A DNA stretch of 62,658 nt, filler included. It is 7 parts of 7 records of this genome, joined end to end, with 100 filler letters (N's around TTAATTAATTAA, not from the genome) between each part and the next. Parts side by side here need not be neighbours in the genome. Positions count along the whole stretch, not along the records: positions 50,422 to 57,077 come from DRR378314_2451; 6 more parts are not named here. One strand, given 5' to 3'. Position 1 is the first letter of the stretch. Every line of letters begins with the position of its first letter. This document shows, in pieces, positions 14,340 through 62,108 of the stretch. The position numbers and the translations under genes are program-made. The notes below the pieces were generated by a model. The model worked only from the letters and a program-made list of their open reading frames with translations, did no database searches and was not told where the DNA came from.

Positions 14340-14439
14340 NNNNNNNNNNNNNNNNNNNNNNNNNNNNNNNNNNNNNNNNNNNNTTAATTAATTAANNNNN
14401 NNNNNNNNNNNNNNNNNNNNNNNNNNNNNNNNNNNNNNN
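14340..14439. other. Artificial contig-joining linker
   Basis: 44 N + TTAATTAATTAA + 44 N. Confidence 0.99.
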
Positions 14440-27539: not shown

Positions 27540-27639
27540 NNNNNNNNNNNNNNNNNNNNNNNNNNNNNNNNNNNNNNNNNNNNTTAATTAATTAANNNNN
27601 NNNNNNNNNNNNNNNNNNNNNNNNNNNNNNNNNNNNNNN
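27540..27639. other. Artificial contig-joining linker
   Basis: 44 N + TTAATTAATTAA + 44 N. Confidence 0.99.
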
Positions 27640-36795: not shown

Positions 36796-36895
36796 NNNNN
36801 NNNNNNNNNNNNNNNNNNNNNNNNNNNNNNNNNNNNNNNTTAATTAATTAANNNNNNNNNNNNNNNNNNNNNNNNNNNNNNNNNNNNNNNNNNNN
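36796..36895. other. Artificial contig-joining linker
   Basis: 44 N + TTAATTAATTAA + 44 N. Confidence 0.99.
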
Positions 36896-43366: not shown

Positions 43367-43466
43367 NNNNNNNNNNNNNNNNNNNNNNNNNNNNNNNNNN
43401 NNNNNNNNNNTTAATTAATTAANNNNNNNNNNNNNNNNNNNNNNNNNNNNNNNNNNNNNNNNNNNN
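43367..43466. other. Artificial contig-joining linker
   Basis: 44 N + TTAATTAATTAA + 44 N. Confidence 0.99.
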
Positions 43467-50321: not shown

Positions 50322-50421
50322 NNNNNNNNNNNNNNNNNNNNNNNNNNNNNNNNNNNNNNNNNNNNTTAATTAATTAANNNNNNNNNNNNNNNNNNNNNNN
50401 NNNNNNNNNNNNNNNNNNNNN
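50322..50421. other. Artificial contig-joining linker
   Basis: 44 N + TTAATTAATTAA + 44 N. Confidence 0.99.
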
Positions 50422-51354
50422 ATCGTGCCCGCGCCCTATCACGACATGTACCCGCCTGAAACGCATAGTCCCGTACTGCGCAGTGATGTGGAAAAGGACG
50501 ACCCGCATCCTGTTTTCGGCGCATTCATGGAAGAACGCGTCTCCAAAGCCTTCACCAATGAGACAACCCGCACAAAGGTCATCGGTGCCTATATGGGCCT
50601 GATCAAGCAGATCGATGATCAGATGGGCGAATTGATGGCCTTTCTGAAGGCGCAGGGGCTGACGGATGATACGATGATTGTCTTCACCTCCGATCATGGC
50701 GACTATCTGGGCGATCACTGGATGGGCGAAAAAGAGCTGTTTCACGACCCTTCCGCCCGTATCCCGCTCATCGTGGTTGATCCCAGCCGCGAGGCTGATG
50801 TAACGCGTGGCACAGTGTCTGAGGCCTTGGTTGAAGCCATTGATGTGGTGCCCACGATCCTTGACTATTTCGGCGGCGCAGAGGCCCCCCATATCATCGA
50901 AGGCAAATCCCTGCGCCCATTGATGCAGGGCGACTGCGAAAGTCTGCACGATTTTGTCATCTCGGAATACGATTATTCTTTCCGGCAAGCCCGCCGAAGG
51001 CTCGGGGTGAGCGTGGCCGATGCCAAGCTGACGATGCTGTTCGACGGAAGATGGAAATACGTTTTTGCCGAAGGCTTCAGGCCGATGTTGTTCGATCTGC
51101 GCTCTGACCCGGATGAGTTCCACGACCTTGGCGGCAATCCCGACTATGCGCAGGAATGCGATCGCCTGCAGGCGCTTTTCTTTCAGTGGACCCGCAGGAT
51201 CAGTCAGCGCACAACCATGTCCGATGCAGAGATAGAAAAACGTGGTGTGGACCTGAACGAAGCCAAGGCCGGAATCCTTATCGGGTTTCCTACCGAAGCT
51301 GATTTGTCCGACGCACTTGCCGCAAACAAAGCGCAGCAGAAAGTTTCTAAGTGA
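50422..51354 (+). CDS. Sulfatase / phosphonate monoester hydrolase-like enzyme (alkaline phosphatase superfamily), 5' truncated
   Basis: IVFTSDHGDYLGDHWMGEK, DVVPTIL, WKYV, LFDLRSDPDE. Confidence 0.88.
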   Translation: MVPAPYHDMYPPETHSPVLRSDVEKDDPHPVFGAFMEERVSKAFTNETTRTKVIGAYMGLIKQIDDQMGELMAFLKAQGLTDDTMIVFTSDHGDYLGDHWMGEKELFHDPSARIPLIVVDPSREADVTRGTVSEALVEAIDVVPTILDYFGGAEAPHIIEGKSLRPLMQGDCESLHDFVISEYDYSFRQARRRLGVSVADAKLTMLFDGRWKYVFAEGFRPMLFDLRSDPDEFHDLGGNPDYAQECDRLQALFFQWTRRISQRTTMSDAEIEKRGVDLNEAKAGILIGFPTEADLSDALAANKAQQKVSK

Positions 51355-51365
51355 CGTGGAGTCCC

Positions 51366-51400
51366 TTCAGGGAAAGGTGAATTGCGTGGATTTCCCTGAA
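51366..51400. promoter_or_regulatory. Perfect 10-bp inverted repeat (terminator or operator) between the sulfatase and creatinase genes
   Basis: ttcagggaaa-N15-tttccctgaa. Confidence 0.45.
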
Positions 51401-51618
51401 AACCCTATTCGTTAAATGCCAAAAACGACATGGAGTGGCGTGATGGTGTTATCCAGATTTCTTGTCGGAGTGTAACCAGCGGGACAAGGGTCGGCGATGG
51501 CGTCGCCAGCAATTGTTTGCATGCCCCTTTCACCATCCTGAACGCCGGGATCTTGCTTTGCCGTTTGGGCGATGAGGAGAAATCTCCATCACTCAAACGC
51601 TTGATAGGAGTTGGTTTG

Positions 51619-52821
51619 ATGGAACGTCCACAACACTACCGCTTTCACCAGGGTCAGAAGACCCTTCCGTTTCCCGATGCAGAATATGAAGCCCGCCTGA
51701 GCAAACTGCGTGCGCAGATGGCAGAGATGGGGATCGACGCCTGTGTGCTTACCTCAATGCACAACGTGGCCTATTATTCAGGTTTCCTCTATTGCGCGTT
51801 TGGTCGCCCATACGCACAGGTTGTAACAGCTACCGAAACCGTGACATTCAGTGCCGGCATCGACGCCGCGCAGCCTTGGCGGCGCGGTTACGGCGATAAC
51901 ATCACTTACACTGACTGGCAGCGGAACAATTACTGGCGTGCGATCCAATCTGTGATCGGTTCAGGCAAGGTCATTGGCTTTGAAGGTGATCACATTTCCT
52001 ACACGCAACTGGCGTTGCTGGATGAATTCCTTGCCCCATCCGCAAAGAAGGACATTGCGCCCACAACGATGCGACTGCGCATGCACAAATCTGCGGCCGA
52101 GATTGAATTGATCCGCGCAGGCGCTGCAACTGCGGACGTCGGTGGATATGCGATCAAGGATGCCATCAAAGCAGGCGTGCGTGAAATCGACGTTGCAATG
52201 GCGGGCCGTGATGCAATGGAGCTTGAGATTGCGCGGCGTTTTCCTGAGTCCGAAATCCGTGATACCTGGGTCTGGTTCCAGTCCGGCATCAATACCGATG
52301 GAGCTCACAACCCGGTCACCTGCCGCCAATTGGAACGCGGTGACATCCTGAGCCTCAACACTTTTCCGATGATTTCAGGTTACTACACCGCCCTTGAGCG
52401 GACGTTGTTTGTCGAGGAGGCCGATGCAGCAAGTCTGAAAATATGGGAAGCCAACGTCGCCGCGCATGAACTGGGCATCAGCCTGTTGAAGCCGGGCGCG
52501 TCCTGCGCTGAGGTGACGCATAAGATCAACGATTTCTTCGCAGAGCGTGATCTGCTGCAGTACCGGAGCTTTGGTTACGGCCATTCCTTCGGTGTGTTGT
52601 CGCACTATTATGGCCGCGAGGCGGGCCTCGAACTGCGCGAGGATATCGACACGGTACTTGAGCCGGGCATGGTGATCTCTATGGAGCCGATGCTGACCAT
52701 CCCCGAAGGTCAGCCCGGTGCAGGGGGCTACCGCGAGCATGATATTCTTGTCATCACCGAAGATGGCAACGAGAACATCACCGGATATCCTTACGGGCCA
52801 GAGTTCAACGTGGTTGGCTAG
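51619..52821 (+). CDS. Creatinase (creatine amidinohydrolase, M24 fold)
   Basis: FLYCAFGRPY, QPWRR, YTDWQR, WFQSGINTDGAHN, YYTALERT, YGHSFGVLSHYYGREAGLELRED, GYREHD; AGGAG before ATG 51619. Confidence 0.93.
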   Translation: MERPQHYRFHQGQKTLPFPDAEYEARLSKLRAQMAEMGIDACVLTSMHNVAYYSGFLYCAFGRPYAQVVTATETVTFSAGIDAAQPWRRGYGDNITYTDWQRNNYWRAIQSVIGSGKVIGFEGDHISYTQLALLDEFLAPSAKKDIAPTTMRLRMHKSAAEIELIRAGAATADVGGYAIKDAIKAGVREIDVAMAGRDAMELEIARRFPESEIRDTWVWFQSGINTDGAHNPVTCRQLERGDILSLNTFPMISGYYTALERTLFVEEADAASLKIWEANVAAHELGISLLKPGASCAEVTHKINDFFAERDLLQYRSFGYGHSFGVLSHYYGREAGLELREDIDTVLEPGMVISMEPMLTIPEGQPGAGGYREHDILVITEDGNENITGYPYGPEFNVVG

Positions 52822-53173
52822 TTTGCCGGAACCTGAAGTGAGCGATTGTGATTGCTCGCTTCATTCATTTCCTGCCAATTCTGGTGTGCAGTAGGGGAGC
52901 TTCCAAAGCGCCTTGTGCTGGCGTGCAAGTCCATAGATTGCCGTCAATTGCACTGATTGTCATCAGCGTGAAACGCGGCAGAAACAAGAACCCCAGTTCC
53001 AACCGTGCTTTGGCGTCCTCAAACCGGGAAGAAGAACGCGCCTTTCAGGAGCACTTCGTGCCCGAGGCAAGAAACAGGTTCTTACTGTCCATCACACTTA
53101 ACGGGCCACCGGCCTGGGCGGTGAGGTCGATACAAACACCGCCGGCTTGGCCTGCCAACAGCGGTAAATACTG

Positions 53174-54214
53174 CTATTCGGCCATTTGTTTATCAACCTG
53201 CTGTTCTTCATTGATCATGGCCTGCAACTGGCGGCGGAACCGCAGTTGTCCGCCGTCAATTGGCAGGTCGATGTGTGGCGAGGTCTTGTTGCTCATGCCT
53301 TTTTGCACCTCATTAAGGACATCCCTGTCCTCCTCAAAGGCGTGTTGAACGTCTTCCGACATCATCTTGGAAAGGTCGTCGTCATCAGGTCTGATATTGC
53401 GTAGCTGGAACCAGTAGTAGCGCGTGCGCCCTTCATCGGTGGGCGTCATGAAGTTGTAGCTGTCCATGATGAAGGTGTTTTCATGTAACGGGCCGTCCGG
53501 TCCCCCGGTGCCTGCGGGTGTAAAAACAGCCTTGATCAGCGCATGGGAGGGGTAGCGTACTTCGTAATGCTGAAGGCGATCACAATTGCCCTCGAACTCC
53601 ACCACCTTTTTGTAAAAGGGGGCCGGTTCATGATCCATCATCCAGCGATGCACAATCACGCCGTCATCGGTTTTCTTGATCCTCAGAGGCGTATCTTTGG
53701 TGGCATCGGCGGCAAAGCTGCTTTGATGCACCCATGCGACATGCGTCGGGTCCAGCAGGTTGTCACACATCAGCAGATAGTTGCAATCAAGCTCCATCGC
53801 ATCACCGCGATTTATGCCCCATGCCGGGTCGTCGTAATTCTCGATCTCGAAAATATCGACAGGATCGGCAAGCGCCGGGTTCCCCATCCAGATCCATACC
53901 AGCCCATATTTCTCGTGCAGGGGGTAGGCGTGGACCTTGGCATTGGACGGAATGCCAGCTGAGCCGGGAGCCCAGACGCATTGGCCAACACAATTGAAAG
54001 TCAGGCCGTGATAACCACATTCGACCGTATCACCCTTAATGCGGCCCTTTGACAGTGGCAGCTTGCGATGCGGACAGGCGTCTTCGAGGGCGACCAACTC
54101 ACCAGCTTCAGAGCGAAATACGCATATCTTTTCACCAAGCACTATGATCTGCCGCAAGTCGCGGGTGATCTCGTGATCCCAAGCAGCGACGTACCAGGCG
54201 TTTTTCAAGAACAT
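53174..54214 (-). CDS. Rieske non-heme iron oxygenase alpha subunit, VanA/demethylase-like
   Basis: MFLKNAWYVAAW, Rieske CPH...CGYH, mononuclear-iron ligands DNLLDPTHVAWVH and FEED. Confidence 0.94.
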   Translation of the reverse strand: MFLKNAWYVAAWDHEITRDLRQIIVLGEKICVFRSEAGELVALEDACPHRKLPLSKGRIKGDTVECGYHGLTFNCVGQCVWAPGSAGIPSNAKVHAYPLHEKYGLVWIWMGNPALADPVDIFEIENYDDPAWGINRGDAMELDCNYLLMCDNLLDPTHVAWVHQSSFAADATKDTPLRIKKTDDGVIVHRWMMDHEPAPFYKKVVEFEGNCDRLQHYEVRYPSHALIKAVFTPAGTGGPDGPLHENTFIMDSYNFMTPTDEGRTRYYWFQLRNIRPDDDDLSKMMSEDVQHAFEEDRDVLNEVQKGMSNKTSPHIDLPIDGGQLRFRRQLQAMINEEQQVDKQMAE

Positions 54215-54216
54215 AG

Positions 54217-55887
54217 CTATTTCCCCAGAATGCCGGGCAAGTTCAGCCCTTTTTCCCGTGCACAGTCCAGAGCAATTTCATAACCCGCATCTGCGTGACG
54301 CATCACGCCAGTTGCAGGATCGTTCCACAGGACATTGGCGATCCGGCGGTCTGCGTCCTCTGAACCGTCACAACAAATTACCATACCGGAATGTTGGGAA
54401 AAACCCATCCCCACGCCGCCGCCATGGTGCAGCGATACCCATGTTGCACCGCCCGCCACATTTAACATCGCGTTAAGCAGCGGCCAGTCCGATACCGCGT
54501 CAGAGCCGTCTTTCATAGCCTCCGTTTCGCGGTTTGGCGAAGCAACTGATCCAGAGTCCAGATGGTCGCGGCCAATCACAACAGGCGCGGAAAGCTCTCC
54601 CGTACGTACCATCTCGTTGAAGGCCAGCCCCAGCTTGTCGCGCAGGCCCAGACCGACCCAGCAAATGCGTGCCGGCAGGCCTTGAAATGCAATCCGCTCA
54701 CGCGCCATATCCAGCCAGTTGTGCAGATGCGGATCGTCAATCAGTTCTTTGACCTTGGCGTCCGTCTTGTAGATATCCTCCGGATCACCGGACAGTGCGC
54801 ACCAACGGAACGGCCCTACACCACGGCAGAAAAGCGGACGGATATAGGCGGGCACAAAGCCCGGAAAGGCAAAGGCGTTTTCAAGCCCTTCTTCCTGGGC
54901 CACCTGACGGATGTTGTTGCCATAATCCAGCGTTGGCACACCTGCATTCCAGAAATCCACCATCGCGGCGACCTGCACCTTCATGCTGGCGCGGGCAGCT
55001 CGCTCCACCCCTTTGGGATCGCTCTCCTGTTTGGCGCGCCATTCGGCGACGGTCCAGCCTTGCGGCAGATAGCCGTGGACCGGATCGTGTGCAGAGGTCT
55101 GGTCGGTGACCATATCGGGCTTCACACCGCGCTTGACCAGCTCGGGGAAGACATCTGCGGCATTGCCGATCAGCGCCACGGACTTGGCTTCGCCATTGGC
55201 CGTCCATTTGTCGATCATGGCGAGTGCTTCGTCCAGATCATGGGTTTTCTCATCGACATACCGTGTGCGCAGACGGAAATCGGCGCGGGTCTCATCACAT
55301 TCGACGGCCAGACAACATGCGCCGGCCATCACAGCGGCCAGCGGTTGGGCACCACCCATCCCACCCAGACCACCTGTCAAAATCCAACGGCCCTTGAGGT
55401 TGCCCTCATAGTGCTGGCGCCCGGCTTCCATAAAGGTCTCATAGGTGCCTTGCACGATGCCTTGCGTGCCGATGTAAATCCACGAACCGGCGGTCATCTG
55501 GCCGTACATTGCCAGGCCCTTTTTATCCAATTCGTTGAAGTGATCCCAATTGGCCCAATGTGGCACAAGGTTGGAGTTGGCGATCAACACGCGCGGCGCA
55601 TCCTTATGGGTGTTGAATACGCCCACGGGTTTACCCGATTGCACCAGCAGCGTCTGGGTGTCCTCAAGCTCTTTGAGAGCGGCGACGATGGCGTCAAAAT
55701 CTTCCCATGTCCGCGCCGCGCGGCCAATACCGCCATAGACAACCAGCTCATGCGGGTTCTCGGCCACATCAGGGTGCAGGTTGTTCATCAGCATCCGCAT
55801 TGGTGCCTCGGTCAGCCAGCTTTTGGCTGTGATCTCAGAGCCTGTCGGCGGGTAAACGTCGCGCAGGTTGTGGCGGGAAATATTCAT
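54217..55887 (-). CDS. hutU: Urocanate hydratase
   Basis: [57 protein letters not shown]. Confidence 0.98.
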
Positions 55888-56681
55888 GTCAGATCTCCGT
55901 TGATGGCGATATGTGCAAGTTTGCCCAGAAGCCGTGAGAGAGGGCGGCGCAGGCGGGTGGCTTTGATCTCGTCATAGCTCCAGGGCGGGGCTTCATCGCT
56001 GAGATAGGTGGATTGGGCGAGTTCCATCTGGATGGCGTGGATGCCCTGTTCGGGCTTCCCATAACGGCGTGTCGCCCAGCCGCCTTTGAAACGGCCGTTC
56101 AGGACAGTGGTGTAACTATCCTCGGCGCGGCAAAGGCCGTAGGTGGCGGTTTCAATGACACGGCCGCAGGTCGTGCCAAGGTTCGTGCCAATGTTGAAAT
56201 CGGGCAGGATGCCACTGAACAGGAACGGAATTTTGCTGCGGATCGAGTGGCAGTCATACAAGATCGCGATACCGTGGATCGCCTTCACCCGCATCAGTTC
56301 TTCCTTGAGGGCCGCGTGATAGGCCGCGTGAAACTTGCGGCGGCGGTCTTCGGTGTCGGCTTCGCTTGGCGGCGTATCCCAGATATCCTTGCCATCAAAA
56401 TCCGTCAGCGGCACCAGCGTCGTGGTGTTCTGACCGGGATAAAGGCTTGCGCCAGAGGGGTCACGGTTTGCGTCAATCACATAGCGGTGGAAGTTGGCCG
56501 TAACGCTGGTCGAATCCGCCAGCAGCCCGTCGTAAAGGCGATCAATGTGCCAATCGGTATCGGCCAGCTTGCGCCCGTTGTCGTTCAGCTTGGCCGCGAT
56601 GTCATTAGGCACATAAGTCCCTGTATGCGGCAGGCCAAGGACAATCGGGCCGCTGCCTTGCCTGACCGTCACCGGGGTCAT
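55884..56681 (-). CDS. hutG: N-formylglutamate deformylase
   Basis: [41 protein letters not shown] overlap with hutU. Confidence 0.95.
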
Positions 56682-57077
56682 ACTGCCTGTCCTTTGACAT
56701 AGGCGGGCAGGTCAACCGCATCCGACAATCTGCCCGAGACAACCAGCGCCGCAGCCGCTTCGATGGACGGAGCCATATAGCGATCCTCGGCAATCGCGGG
56801 AACCTCTGCACGCAAAGCGGCCATTGCAACTTTAAGTGGCGCACTGGTCTGCAAAGGTGCGCGGAACTCGATGCCTTGCGCGGCGCACATCGCCTCAACG
56901 CCAAGGATTACATTCAGGTTCGCGTTCATCCGTAACAGACGGCGCGCGGCATGGGCGGCCATGCTGACGTGGTCCTCTTGATTGGCGGAGGTTGGCGTGC
57001 TGTCCGTGGTGCAGGGATTGGCGAGGTGCTTGTTCTCGCTCATCAGGGCGGCCGTGGTGACCTCGGCGATCATCAGG
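56678..57077 (-). CDS. hutH: Histidine ammonia-lyase, 3' fragment
   Basis: [38 protein letters not shown] overlap with hutG. Confidence 0.95.
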
Positions 57078-57177
57078 NNNNNNNNNNNNNNNNNNNNNNN
57101 NNNNNNNNNNNNNNNNNNNNNTTAATTAATTAANNNNNNNNNNNNNNNNNNNNNNNNNNNNNNNNNNNNNNNNNNNN
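57078..57177. other. Artificial contig-joining linker
   Basis: 44 N + TTAATTAATTAA + 44 N. Confidence 0.99.
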
Positions 57178-57565: not shown

Positions 57566-59171
57566 ATTTTCTTACTTTCGTTTCTGTTTCCGCCGTTAAG
57601 GAGAGGATGGAAGTTTTCAGTCTGTTACAAGGTCGGTGGCATGGAGAATGTGAATTCAGAGCCAGCGCGGCGGATGCGCATTGCGGTAACAGCGCGCACA
57701 TGGTGCACTATCGGATGGAGCACTGCTTTGCAGACCAAGTGGGTAGTCGACAAGTAAATGCGCATGCGTTCGTCGCTCGTCACACTACCTCGCACGCATT
57801 GCGAGTTGGTATGCAGTAGGACATTGCGACACACAGAGAGCTGACATGCGCACCGAGTTCATCATTCAGGTGATCCACTATGGGCATTTCTCTGTATTTT
57901 ACTACGCATAAAATCATGTAATTGGGTTAAAGAACTACACGCCTGCCGCAATAACAATATGATGTAATCGTTGTAGAATCCTCCCATTACAAGTTGCCTC
58001 CAGGAAATTACGCACTGGGGCCGGAAAGATGCTCATGCACACAACAAAAGACACACATTTTTATATATACATACGATATTTACTCGCGCACGGCGCCTTA
58101 CGAGGTGTGGCTGCTCGCAATCTTCTGCCACCAGGCGCACAAGTCTGCACCGCCAAGGTCATGACAGCGGCGGAAGCAGCTCGCGCACACGAAACAAAAC
58201 GCGCGCGCGCAATGAACAGACGCATGATTGCGATCAACAATCATGGAGACAAATAAATCACCGTTTGTTTGTTGGTTGGTACGTTGTTGTTGTTGTTTAT
58301 TGCAAGAGCGCAATTCGAAACGTGAACTTGCTTCGCTTCCGCACTCTGCGTTGAGCAGCGACAAGCGCACTATGTCTGCAGAGCGAAGGACAGAGCACAA
58401 GGCATATCCACCACACAGTGGTCAAGGTGCAAGCGATTGTCAAGAGAGCGGGCATGACCACTTCATACCATCGATCGCATATAAAAACAAAGAGACGAGA
58501 CAACGAGCGAAAGGAAGTGCTATAAAACGCAGTGGAAAGGCGTAAACGGGTCGAGCGCCGAAAACGCGGTACGGTTGCTTGACTGCTCGCTGTGCGCCAC
58601 CACGCCTCGGCACTCTCAGCGGACCGTTCGTAGCCAAAGCAGGATCAAACCCGGCACACAAGGGGCGCGAAGACATAAATAGACACAAGAGAACACAAGC
58701 AGATAGTTTGCAGAACTGTATCACAGTACGAACGCGCAGCGGTAACTTCGCTGGAAAGGACCGCCTGCGTTTGTTCTCGCACGGGGAGAAACGCGGAGCA
58801 CACTCTATACGGGACGACATAATGAAACAGCTGCACACACTCGACCAGAGCAAACGAACAAAAACGGTACGTATACGCACCCACACAAATATAAAAACAA
58901 ACTTCCCGCCAAACCAAAACAGAAAAGAGCTCATGTTTTCCATACAACAAGGTACACCAAGGCTCCAACTTACGAAAACATCATTTGACTTGGAGAGGAT
59001 ATCGCAAGGTTACAAACTACGCGGAATTCACTTTCGCAAATGAACGGGCTACATTTCCTCAGAAAAAAATATGGGATTCTCGTGGCGGCGGGGAGGGTAC
59101 TGCAGTGAAGAAAAGCATGTCCTACAAAATGCGTCGACAACAATTCATGCGCGACACCAGCACGCACGTAC

Positions 59172-62108
59172 CTGCTGCTGGTCATGCTGCGGACCAAACT
59201 GGAATAGGTGCTTCTCCATTGCATGCGAAGGAGGAACGGAAAACGTCGGGTGGAAATTGTGCCCAGGCTGCGAAGTTGCGGCGGCTGCAGCGGCGGCTGC
59301 AGCCGCTGCTGCCGTCATCAACGAGGCATCATGGGACGAATGCTGCTGCTGCTGCTGCTGTGAAGGCATGGAAGGCGGTCGCGCTGCCATGCCCATCAGC
59401 CCAGCAGCCGCGTTATTCGCTGCCGATTGCGCATAGAGAGGATGCTGTCCCATCAGCAGTGCGCTCACTGCAGGAGGGAGACCTTGTAGGCTCCCCGGAT
59501 ACCCCGCACTCGCGCTATGCAAATAATCGGTTCTCTGGCGAATCGCATGCTCGGGGCCAAGAGGATCTTCCGCTCCGCGCTTCATGCCACCATAAACATC
59601 CTGGTGCGCGAGCATCCCGCCGCGAAACGCAGGCGGAGGCGAACGCATCGAAGGTGAAAGGGCAGCCTGTCGGCTACCGGCTGGCTCCCGCTTGGGCGCG
59701 TCCGCTTGGCCAGCTGCATGTTCTGGAACGCCACTTCCATTCTCAGGCGTCCCATGCAGCTTCTTCGTATACCGCTCAATGACTTTCGCGAACGCCCCGA
59801 CAGTTGTCCGCACTCGTGCCATAATCTGGTCCAGCCGCGCGCGCGTCTCCTCCAGGTTTCGCAACAGAGATTCGAAGTTGGGAGCATTGCGGTCAGTCGA
59901 ACGCACAAGAGTTTCCAGCTCCAGCTTCTCTCGCCGCGCCTGGCAAGCCTGGTCGCGAAGTGTAGCCATGTTGCGGATATGGTCGGAAAAGCGGGTCTGC
60001 AGCGAGCGCGGGCCGCTCCGTGTCAAGTCGTTCCACTGCTCGACCAGAATGTCCGGCTTCTTGATCACTTTCCACTGAAACGTCACCAGCTCGCTAATTT
60101 CAGCCTTGGACATTGTTTTATGGGCCCCTGCACGGTTGGTCGGTGGTTTCCCACCCCACAACAAAAAAGAAAGGGAGTTGCGCACAACGATAGAAAAGCG
60201 CGCACCCAGGCGAGAGAACGACACCAGCCGCACGATGTAAGGAAGCGCACGGCAGGCAAAGCAGGCGTTGTCGCCTTTGCACGCTAGGCTGGTTCGCCAG
60301 CAAATGCGAGCCGCGCACCCATGCGCACACGCGCACAAGAGCGAGACCAACCCGACTCGCGCAACCAGCGGTGCAGCCCCGCGAGAATGCACCCCAGCAG
60401 CTTGTGCGAGTATTGCTCTCACGAATAATTGGGAGGGCACCCCCCCCAAAAAAAACCTTTGAAAAAGCTTCGCGGAGTTGGACAGCAAGCCGCCCAGAAC
60501 AACGAGCTCGTGCAAGAGAGAAGAACCGCTTCGTCGAACGCAACGCGCACGCGTCGGGCAAGGGTTGCGCATTGACAGAAATTCGTCGCTGCACGTGCCC
60601 TTCAAGTCGCGAGGTGCGCAACGCAGACTGAGCGCTACGGCGCCGGCAAAGCACACCTTCAGCGTACAGCCGTTCGCTCTCGGTGTTCCAGTATTTGTAC
60701 CACAGTTTCGTGAGTCCCTTTGCCTTTTCGATTTCTTCTGTGCTGTATACTTTGGTAAAAAAGCTTGCATTCGGGTACTGAGCGTGGCGCGTCTGTGCAC
60801 GCACAAGAACGGCAGAGTATGTTCGCCGTGGTGAGAAGGAGCGGTCACAGAAAACACAAAGACCACCGCGCCAACGCAGACGGTCCTAGGCAGAGCACAG
60901 CACTGCCTGCCACATGCAGTGCCGAGACGCCTCCGAGGCGACCTTGCGAGGAACGTCGGCGGCACGTCGCTTTCTACGGCACGGCGCGTTGCACACGGCA
61001 GCGGAAGCACATGTCCGCATACATGTACTATCTTTTCCATTGCCCGTATCTTGCACATCTCCGCCACCGCGTGTAGCCGTAATTAAACGGGGCAGGGGGA
61101 GCGCGCCAAAGGTAAGCGGCGACGTGGACGCTACAAGCTGCTTGGGGATTGGCTGAACAGCAAGGCGGCCGCAGTTGGCACGGCCAGGGACGGGGCGTCA
61201 CGCGGCGTCCACGCACGCGCGCGATCGTTCCGCGCGTGCCCGTCCCGAAGCGCCTCTGCGCCCGCACGTCCGCGGGATCGCGGCTGCAACGGGCGCAGAG
61301 GCCAGTCTCCTTCGCTACTGGCCGAAACAAGGCTAACTAAGATACGCAGTAATCAGGAAAAGGCGGCGCCGAGAGTTTTGAGGACATTTACAGTTGCAAA
61401 GGAGCCTCAAACAAAGTAGGGAAGACGCGGGGCACTGGCGAGAGGCAGTGCGCTGCGTGCGCAAACGCAGTTTCACAATCGGGTTCGACACTGGCGCGGA
61501 CGCGGCATTCGTCGCCACGCCCCCGGTGACATCCCAAAGAGCCGGACGGCGGTCTTCCGAGGGGCAAGCTTGCCCCCGGGGAAAACGCCCTTGCGCTCGT
61601 TGTCGTGACAGCAGCCCGCCAAGGAGTTTGACTGCCGATGAACGAGGCTCAACCAAGCTACCACTGCTCTAGGAGCTTACCGCGCTCGTCGAAAGCCTAC
61701 GCACAGCGTGGCCACCGCGCTGCGTTGCAGCGCCTTGGAATCTCACCATATGGTGCAAGAACATACCCTGGTTGTTGTGGGTGCCGGCACATTCGGCAGC
61801 GTGCCCACATCAGCACGAGGAAGGGAGCCATCGTCGCTCACAAAAATGCGCGCCCCGTGGGGAATGGTCTCTGCGTCCGCCAGGTCTACAAGCTCGTGAA
61901 AAAGCAGGTCATACACTGCGAAGCGCCACTTCGGGTCGTCCTCTGAAGGCTTCGCAGCCGCGGCCTCCTTGCCGCCAAACAAGTCCAGCGAGTCAAAAAA
62001 CCGTCGGCGCAATTGCACAAACGACGGCGGTGCATTGAAAGCAAAGCGCAGACGGCGCCCGCTGTACGTTACAAGCACCGTAGTCAGGGCAGCAGCAGCG
62101 TCCGACAT
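59172..62108 (-). CDS. Uncharacterised spliced protein: ubiquitin/PB1-like N-terminus, HMG-box-like helices, coiled coil, Q/A-rich tail; 3' end unresolved
   Basis: Exons 62108-61767, 60792-60657 and 60127-59172 with GT-AG boundaries and compatible phases; further exons may lie between 61767 and 60792 and below 59172. Confidence 0.55.

Follow-up and report, generated by a model that had tools for sequence, protein, structure and literature searches.

A 62,658-nucleotide stretch of assembled DNA, here called the window, carries part of a hut operon of a marine bacterium in which a gene for a Rieske oxygenase follows hutU as the last cistron. The junction between hutU and this gene recurs far beyond chance among the orthologues of the oxygenase. 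Judged from sequence comparisons, we see about an even chance that the enzyme is an N-demethylase whose substrate is a methylated derivative of histidine and whose product, histidine, enters the Hut pathway, and we present this as a well-supported lead and not as a demonstrated function. The window consists of seven contigs with six joins, each of the form N44-TTAATTAATTAA-N44. Since the contigs were concatenated, gene neighbourhoods that span a spacer are artefacts. The genuine genomic context of the hut-Rieske finding is contig 50422-57077 only, about 6.6 kb. The positions of all features discussed are collected in Table 1.

An earlier note on this DNA, made from the letters alone, had described hutH, hutG and hutU as overlapping by ATGA and the oxygenase gene as their last companion. 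Both overlaps were read in the sequence, at the hutH/hutG junction (GTATGACC) and at the hutG/hutU junction (ACATGAAT). The stop codon TAG of hutU (54219-54217) is followed by CT and then by the ATG of the oxygenase gene at 54214, which leaves a gap of 2 nt. The motif GGGGAA, which the earlier note had taken for the likely ribosome-binding site, was found at 54226-54221 inside hutU and ends 6 nt ahead of this ATG. The genes thus show the spacing of a Hut operon, being co-directional, with ATGA overlaps and a 2-nt gap and no intervening promoter-like site; a scan of the contig showed no promoter-like site anywhere on its minus strand. The promoter region of the operon itself falls outside the contig. 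Behind the oxygenase gene follows a hairpin (53163-53137) with a 10-pair stem and a T-rich tail, which agrees with the position as last cistron. All three urocanase domains are present in HutU with E-values from 1e-58 to 1e-88, in line with the standard motifs noted before, and the gene is 80-97% identical to hutU of related genomes. HutG scores 342 bits on the TIGR02017 model, for which the cut-off is 279. For hutH as an operon gene, the overlap with hutG stands. The gene itself is present only as a 3′ fragment of 131 codons because the contig stops at 57077, and this piece covers profile positions 377-465 of 466 in Lyase_aromatic.

The claim that a complete VanA-like Rieske oxygenase follows hutU was borne out by the domains and metal ligands of the 346-amino-acid product. 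Pfam detects a Rieske domain (E 6e-21) and a VanA_C domain (E 8e-47, 192 of 193 profile positions). In an alignment of 120 homologues, reaching down to about 30% identity, there is no variation in the Rieske [2Fe-2S] ligands C47-P-H49 and C66-G-Y-H69 or in H158 and D296 of the iron site, and the third iron ligand H163, the bridging D155 and N152 are conserved in at least 90%. The iron-site residues align with the motifs DNLMDLGH..VH and ED of DdmC. The AlphaFold model has a pLDDT of 95.8, and its structure neighbours (phmmer/Foldseek) are, in this order, DdmC, the guaiacol O-demethylase 7qwt, the hydroxylases SxtT and GxtA and the N-demethylases NdmA and NdmB. On these grounds the protein is assigned to the alpha-only Rieske monooxygenases of the demethylase/hydroxylase group, at a distance from every characterised enzyme, and is probably a homotrimer that belongs to a two-component system. 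It matches no NCBIfam equivalog; the top match is a sterol monooxygenase model with 102 bits against a cut-off of 600. Protein atlas names for the oxygenase and for the PhyH-family protein described below are generic only, and relatives of the oxygenase are labelled ‘vanillate O-demethylase monooxygenase subunit’ or ‘TsaM1’ in the source databases.

The top match among solved structures is DdmC, the oxygenase of dicamba O-demethylase (PDB 3gb4 and 3gke; phmmer E 3e-39, Foldseek TM 0.85-0.88). DdmC is itself a monooxygenase that releases the methyl group as formaldehyde, and it shares the Rieske and VanA_C architecture, a similar length and the lack of a beta subunit. However, the identity is only about 29% over the whole fold, its substrate is a chlorinated aromatic acid and it works with a separate ferredoxin and reductase, whereas the query clade is marked by a set of conserved residues of its own and stands in histidine or amino-acid contexts. 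The second PDB match, 7qwt (E 3e-38, TM 0.86, 26% identity), carries the VanA_C domain as well and, like VanA-type enzymes in general, is part of a two-component system with an FNR/ferredoxin-type reductase, similar to the one that follows the plasmid orthologues described below. The linked reductase and the vanillate or other aromatic context of VanA proper are absent at the query, which is surrounded by hut, creatinase and PhyH genes instead. NdmA, NdmB and NdmC are Rieske monooxygenases that remove an N-methyl group from a nitrogen heterocycle, and NdmC reportedly acts on N7 of the imidazole ring. Their fold is related (TM 0.70-0.75), but the identity is 19-20%, phmmer matches the Rieske half only (E 1e-15) and they belong to another sub-family; the likeness is best read as functional analogy and not as membership. 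GbcA, Stc2 and HpbB1 are betaine-type Rieske demethylases that feed amino-acid catabolism by oxidative N-demethylation. They are said to have GbdR-type regulators and sarcosine-oxidase-type enzymes nearby, as is also seen at some loci of the query family. None of the three is named among the 23 PDB sequences matched at E ≤1e-5, and the query is of the VanA_C type.

A protein search revealed orthologues with 74-92% identity in many genera of the Roseobacter group. To describe their surroundings we used a sample of 80 species-representative loci with orthologues of 83-95% identity. Thirty of these loci, belonging to 16 named genera, have hutU in the same orientation immediately upstream, at a distance of 1-33 nt (median 4) from the oxygenase gene, and it is this repeated tight junction that places the association beyond chance. 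The full arrangement in orthologue loci is hutI-hutH-hutG-hutU-Rieske with hutF and hutC divergent. Hut-linked copies are dispersed through the clade and not restricted to one branch of a quick tree in which many forks are unresolved. Relatives with 48-81% identity adjoin hut genes in at least five further layouts. A TRAP transporter gene stands between hutU and the Rieske gene on a single strand in L072, and the Rieske gene converges on hutU in L097 (63% identity) and L099 (79%). Convergence on hutU is also seen in L098 (64%), where a SoxA-like gene precedes the Rieske gene, and in L100, which has the order LysR-Rieske-reductase-hutC. Rieske and hutC genes are neighbours in L102, and in L107 and L108 (60-62%) the Rieske cluster lies beside a HutH homologue. 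Upstream of the Rieske copy in L099 are a LysR gene and then a formaldehyde dehydrogenase gene (flhA-like, 73%). Among 401 sampled alphaproteobacterial genomes a homologue was found in three besides the reference genome G001. The two with 60-62% identity (L107 and L108) both have FAD-oxidase and GntR-type genes in addition to the HutH homologue, and one of them also has HisC-like, AstE-like and PhyH genes close by. The third (44%) has none of the HutH, FAD-oxidase, GntR, HisC, AstE and PhyH markers nearby. The worry that homologues would rarely lie next to hut genes is therefore refuted by a linkage that runs through many genera, several layouts and across sub-families.

Some of the surveyed loci and genomes showed peculiarities of their own. 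At L057:8296-9978, from a metagenome-assembled genome, an intact Rieske gene is preceded by a hutU that matches only as four overlapping frame-shifted pieces and is either a decaying gene or an assembly error. In two Planktotalea loci, also from metagenome-assembled genomes (L030:8672-9892 and L073), the Rieske gene adjoins a RepC-type, repABC-like replication gene and is therefore probably plasmid-borne there. The alphaproteobacterial genome G506 contains seven separate urocanase-family matches with 46-75% identity to HutU, an unusual expansion for an enzyme that is normally single-copy.

The wider family was examined on plasmids. A tblastn search of plasmids with the oxygenase gave 106 records, from which 16 annotated contexts were chosen from the top of the identity ranking and for spread. 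An FNR-type FAD/NAD reductase with a C-terminal ferredoxin domain is encoded directly downstream in 14 of these 16, and a LysR regulator is adjacent in 14. Ten contain a zinc hydrolase, either of the AstE/AspA family (4) or with DUF2817 (6), nine a HisC-like aminotransferase and seven a GntR/UTRA regulator. Hut enzymes are encoded within 9 kb in four contexts: hutU, hutG and hutH on the Mameliella plasmid, hutU in Pseudohalocynthiibacter, hutF and hutI in Paracoccus yeei and hutF in Leisingera. Glutathione-dependent formaldehyde genes occur in three contexts, as well as at the chromosomal locus L099, and a PhyH-family dioxygenase in three. The Mameliella GntR regulator exceeds the HutC equivalog cut-off (NCBIfam) and the HisC-like protein tested exceeds that of TIGR01141; one AstE/AspA protein resembles the N-acetyl-diaminobutyrate deacetylase DoeB, below the model cut-off. 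In most Rhodobacterales plasmids the cluster is accompanied by genes for a FAD-linked 2-hydroxy-acid-oxidase-type enzyme and a HisC-like protein. The ABC importers are of the Dpp/Opp type in Rhodobacterales islands and of the polar-amino-acid type in Rhizobiales, Burkholderiales and Pseudomonas fragi, where the binding protein of the cluster is LAO/HisJ-like. DUF2817, a hydrolase domain related to AstE/AspA, is found within products of about 655-670 amino acids next to the Rieske cluster (L085:12449-14413, L092:9181-11148, L093:10157-12127 and L096:11384-13393), on plasmids labelled Shinella, Rhizobium, Brucella anthropi and Roseateles sp. XES5, the last of which is flagged UNVERIFIED_ORG. For the product labelled Shinella, Pfam detects a fusion of DUF2817 with the ATPase domain of an ABC transporter, which suggests that hydrolysis is coupled to import.

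The conserved oxygenase clade spans Alpha-, Beta- and Gammaproteobacteria. In the quick tree the plasmid genes of Rhodobacterales that are linked to a reductase group together with good support inside the clade of the query protein. At 41 positions a residue is conserved to at least 95% in all 95 clade sequences and is rare in 110 other VanA-like proteins. These positions include the polar residues N135, H216, R220, D251, Y253, R265, Y267 and Q270. They map to strands of the catalytic-domain sheet in the secondary structure of the model, where the residues might face the pocket. That so many clade-specific positions are shared argues for a common substrate type of the hut-linked and the reductase-linked members.

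Taken as an N-demethylase, the oxygenase would work as follows. In the query lineage, the oxygenase gene alone has come to lie behind hutU. It would share one mRNA with hutH-hutG-hutU and therefore be expressed when histidine or urocanate induces Hut, presumably under the control of HutC. With O2 and two electrons supplied by NAD(P)H, the enzyme would hydroxylate an N-methyl group; in the Roseobacter copies the electrons would have to arrive from an unlinked reductase. The hydroxymethyl group would leave as formaldehyde, and the resulting histidine (or urocanate) would enter the standard Hut route. Outside the Roseobacter chromosomes, members of the clade occur as LysR-controlled oxygenase-reductase pairs within islands that often adjoin hutC, hutH, hutU, hutF or hutI. 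There, a basic amino-acid or peptide-like derivative would be imported, its acyl or peptidyl group removed and its methyl group lost as formaldehyde, and the product would pass to histidine metabolism via HutH/HutU or a HisC-type transaminase. Demethylation is the likely reaction type, and the glutathione-dependent formaldehyde genes fit it. Candidate substrates would be pi- and tau-methylhistidine from anserine, balenine or actin and, less likely, N-alpha-methylhistidine, hercynine or methyl-urocanate. Sequence cannot separate a ring-methylated histidine from an N-alpha-methylated one, hercynine, a methylated urocanate or another histidine derivative. Among these, a ring methyl group in pi or tau position is the foremost option but by itself a tentative one, N-alpha-methylhistidine or hercynine is doubtful, and methyl-urocanate or a similar compound takes what little is left. 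For the wider family, a broader proposal seems to us possible, though its chances fall somewhat short of even. It would be a wide group of two-component Rieske N-demethylases dedicated to methylated histidines, among them pi- or tau-methylhistidine and perhaps N-alpha-methylhistidine or hercynine, forming the core of mobile islands together with an importer, an AstE/DUF2817 deacylase, the reductase partner, a HisC-like transaminase and HutC. For marine Roseobacters the proposal is that only the oxygenase became fused onto hutIHGU and that its private reductase was lost.

Several observations weigh against a role in the Hut pathway. Presence and absence were counted in a census of 401 family-level genomes, in which 19 carry an orthologue (at least 73% identity). 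In 8 of the 19 carriers hutU is absent; none of these eight genomes has a Urocanase Pfam match, and all five that were tested for HutH lack it. The enzyme therefore persists without the Hut pathway. With hutU in 11 of 19 carriers and in 207 of 382 non-carriers (Fisher p = 0.82), the frequency equals the background. At the family level (at least 44% identity) carriers are enriched for hutU, which is found in 52 of 68 versus 166 of 333 other genomes (Fisher p = 5e-5), in a hand tally that ignores phylogeny. We also considered that the Rieske enzyme substitutes for urocanase in the genomes without hutU and rejected this, as those genomes are without HutH, too. The electron supply is a further difficulty. 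The plasmid-type reductase is absent from all 80 orthologue loci and from contig 50422-57077, and the candidates located elsewhere in five orthologue genomes are FNR/ferredoxin proteins with only 22-31% identity. Searches for reductase orthologues in the orthologue genomes gave one match of 34% and short matches of 34-45% to the ferredoxin domain alone. The selection of the 16 plasmid contexts was, moreover, non-random. Finally, 50 of the 80 loci have another, variable upstream neighbour. The recurrent non-hut neighbours encode a PhyH-family dioxygenase, a GbdR-like regulator, creatinase, hydantoinase A/B and sarcosine oxidase subunits, and these point towards creatine or creatinine metabolism. 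They may, on the other hand, merely reflect the co-location of genes for muscle-derived nitrogen compounds.

These neighbours lead to another explanation, namely that the enzyme acts, perhaps together with the PhyH dioxygenase, on an N-methyl compound of the creatine, creatinine and sarcosine group, for example creatinine or N-methylhydantoin, and that hut adjacency is a clustering of genes for nitrogen-rich animal-derived compounds. A genuine creatinase gene converges on the oxygenase gene in our contig and in a minority of the orthologue loci, SoxA and SoxG genes lie directly upstream in L040, L041 and L044, hydantoinase A/B genes occur in L010, L027 and L067, and nine loci have a GbdR-like regulator. 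In addition, creatinase is present in 17 of 19 orthologue genomes versus 253 of 382 others (p = 0.04), and the oxygenase gene is kept in Hut-less genomes. However, creatinase is common anyway (270 of 401 genomes) and itself accounts for the sarcosine oxidase genes. The canonical routes for creatine and creatinine are hydrolytic, so that an oxygenase is not needed. None of the 16 plasmid clusters contains an annotated creatinase or hydantoinase; in their place are importers of amino acids or peptides, aminotransferases resembling HisC, and hut genes. We therefore consider a creatine-type substrate quite unlikely.

The hut linkage would also fit a ring or side-chain hydroxylase, in place of a demethylase, that makes a Hut intermediate from imidazole propionate, imidazole lactate, a thiohistidine or a similar imidazole compound. 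The fold family includes the pure hydroxylases SxtT and GxtA, and the 2-hydroxy-acid-oxidase-type and HisC-like genes could handle imidazole lactate or imidazole pyruvate. We rate this as unlikely: the closest solved relatives are demethylases, the formaldehyde-oxidation genes in 3 of 16 plasmid clusters and at L099 speak against it, and nothing observed demands a hydroxylation in particular. An ordinary aromatic O-demethylase or methyl-hydroxylase of the vanillate or toluenesulfonate type, hitch-hiking on the hut transcript, is suggested by the database labels (vanillate O-demethylase, TsaM1) and by the top PDB matches, which act on aromatic acids. Nevertheless, a structure-based alignment gives only about 29% identity to DdmC, the clade holds conserved polar residues of its own, and in the contexts read no reductase, aromatic-acid transporter or ring-cleavage gene lies beside the oxygenase. 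As hitch-hiking gives no explanation for a hut linkage in at least six layouts, an aromatic substrate appears highly improbable.

Expression of the hut-Rieske stretch was assessed in sequencing runs. The stretch occurs in many marine metagenome runs. RNA support comes from four runs in the form of contigs with patchy cover, and contigs cannot prove a single transcript. Only one contig, of 345 nt and from run X16, for which the RNA status is guessed, bridges the hutU-Rieske junction (54151-54495), and a metatranscriptome contig, X19, lies inside the oxygenase gene (53832-54015); both are weak evidence. Another metatranscriptome contig at the junction extends only 9 nt on the Rieske side.

Table 1. 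Features of the hut-Rieske contig (50422-57077) and spacers of the window
Feature	Position	Strand	Basis
Rieske oxygenase, VanA/DdmC-type, 346 aa, last cistron	53174..54214	-	Pfam Rieske + VanA_C
GGGGAA, Shine-Dalgarno-like, in final hutU codons	54221..54226	-	direct sequence reading
hutU, urocanate hydratase, 556 aa	54217..55887	-	Pfam Urocanase_N, Urocanase, Urocanase_C
hutG, N-formylglutamate deformylase, 265 aa	55884..56681	-	Pfam FGase; TIGR02017
hutH, histidine ammonia-lyase, 3′ part, 131 last codons	56678..57077	-	Pfam Lyase_aromatic
Terminator-like hairpin, 11 nt past the Rieske stop	53137..53163	-	consensus scan, pattern match only
Terminator-like hairpin past the convergent creatinase stop	52834-52863	+	consensus scan
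Creatinase (creatine amidinohydrolase), convergent neighbour, outside the operon	51619..52821	+	phmmer vs PDB
Spacers between contigs	14340-14439, 27540-27639, 36796-36895, 43367-43466, 50322-50421, 57078-57177		

The convergent neighbour on the contig matches the PDB entries 7yto, 1chm and 1kp0 over the full length with E-values of 1e-149 to 1e-154 (phmmer; 7.5e-151 for 1chm). Ectoine hydrolase, an alternative identity for this M24 protein, was rejected because the PDB matches identify a true creatinase. Its open reading frame starts at 51430 and encodes 463 amino acids; the 63-codon N-terminal extension (51430-51618) shows no similarity to creatinases. Since the PDB alignments begin near M64, the start is probably at 51619. 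The same convergent neighbour is present in a minority of the orthologue loci.

The PhyH-family protein is an Fe/2-oxoglutarate dioxygenase of 260-280 amino acids for which there is no NCBIfam model. In 10 loci its gene directly follows the Rieske gene, and 15 of the 80 have it at a distance of up to 10 kb. In Roseobacters the distance is about 36 nt (L028:11062-11865 and nine further loci). The dioxygenase gene also lies close to relatives of the Rieske gene in Paraburkholderia and on two plasmids (L086:7060-7902, L089:12515-13333 and L091:282-1067). A heterotetrameric, sarcosine-oxidase-like SoxBDAG operon ends with the Rieske gene in some Rhodobacterales (L091:3074-9041, L098:9265-13683, L040, L041 and L044), and in L098 this operon converges on hutU.

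Elsewhere in the window, the last contig (57178-62658) does not look bacterial. Its long open reading frames 59145-61067 and 58440-58943 have no Pfam match, the AT skew is strongly positive (0.29 at 58000-58999), and CAA/CAAA-type microsatellite runs occur near 58260-58300. This contig may be eukaryotic DNA that was co-assembled with the bacterium.

In the full texts searched, with subscription journals and supplementary files outside the coverage, we found neither a Rieske enzyme described for hut operons nor an account of bacterial breakdown of methylhistidine, anserine or hercynine, and nothing on the function of DUF2817. The kind of enzyme is known; the substrate class proposed for it, the conserved island and a fusion to the hut operon that lacks the reductase are not. 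Methylhistidines are released from decaying animal and algal protein and dipeptides, such as actin, myosin, anserine and balenine, and animals excrete them unchanged. To our knowledge, they are usually regarded as metabolic dead ends. If the proposed function is true, it would provide the first catabolic route for methylhistidines, and if the clade is the missing demethylase, an oxygen-dependent entry step would be added to a textbook pathway. It would also give a function to the many proteins that now carry the label ‘aromatic ring-hydroxylating dioxygenase subunit alpha’, offer a first lead on what DUF2817 and a PhyH sub-family do, and account for a gene that is found in many marine metagenomes. 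That this gene and its relatives in many other bacteria lie beside hut genes points towards a route, so far undescribed, by which a modified and probably methylated histidine is used.

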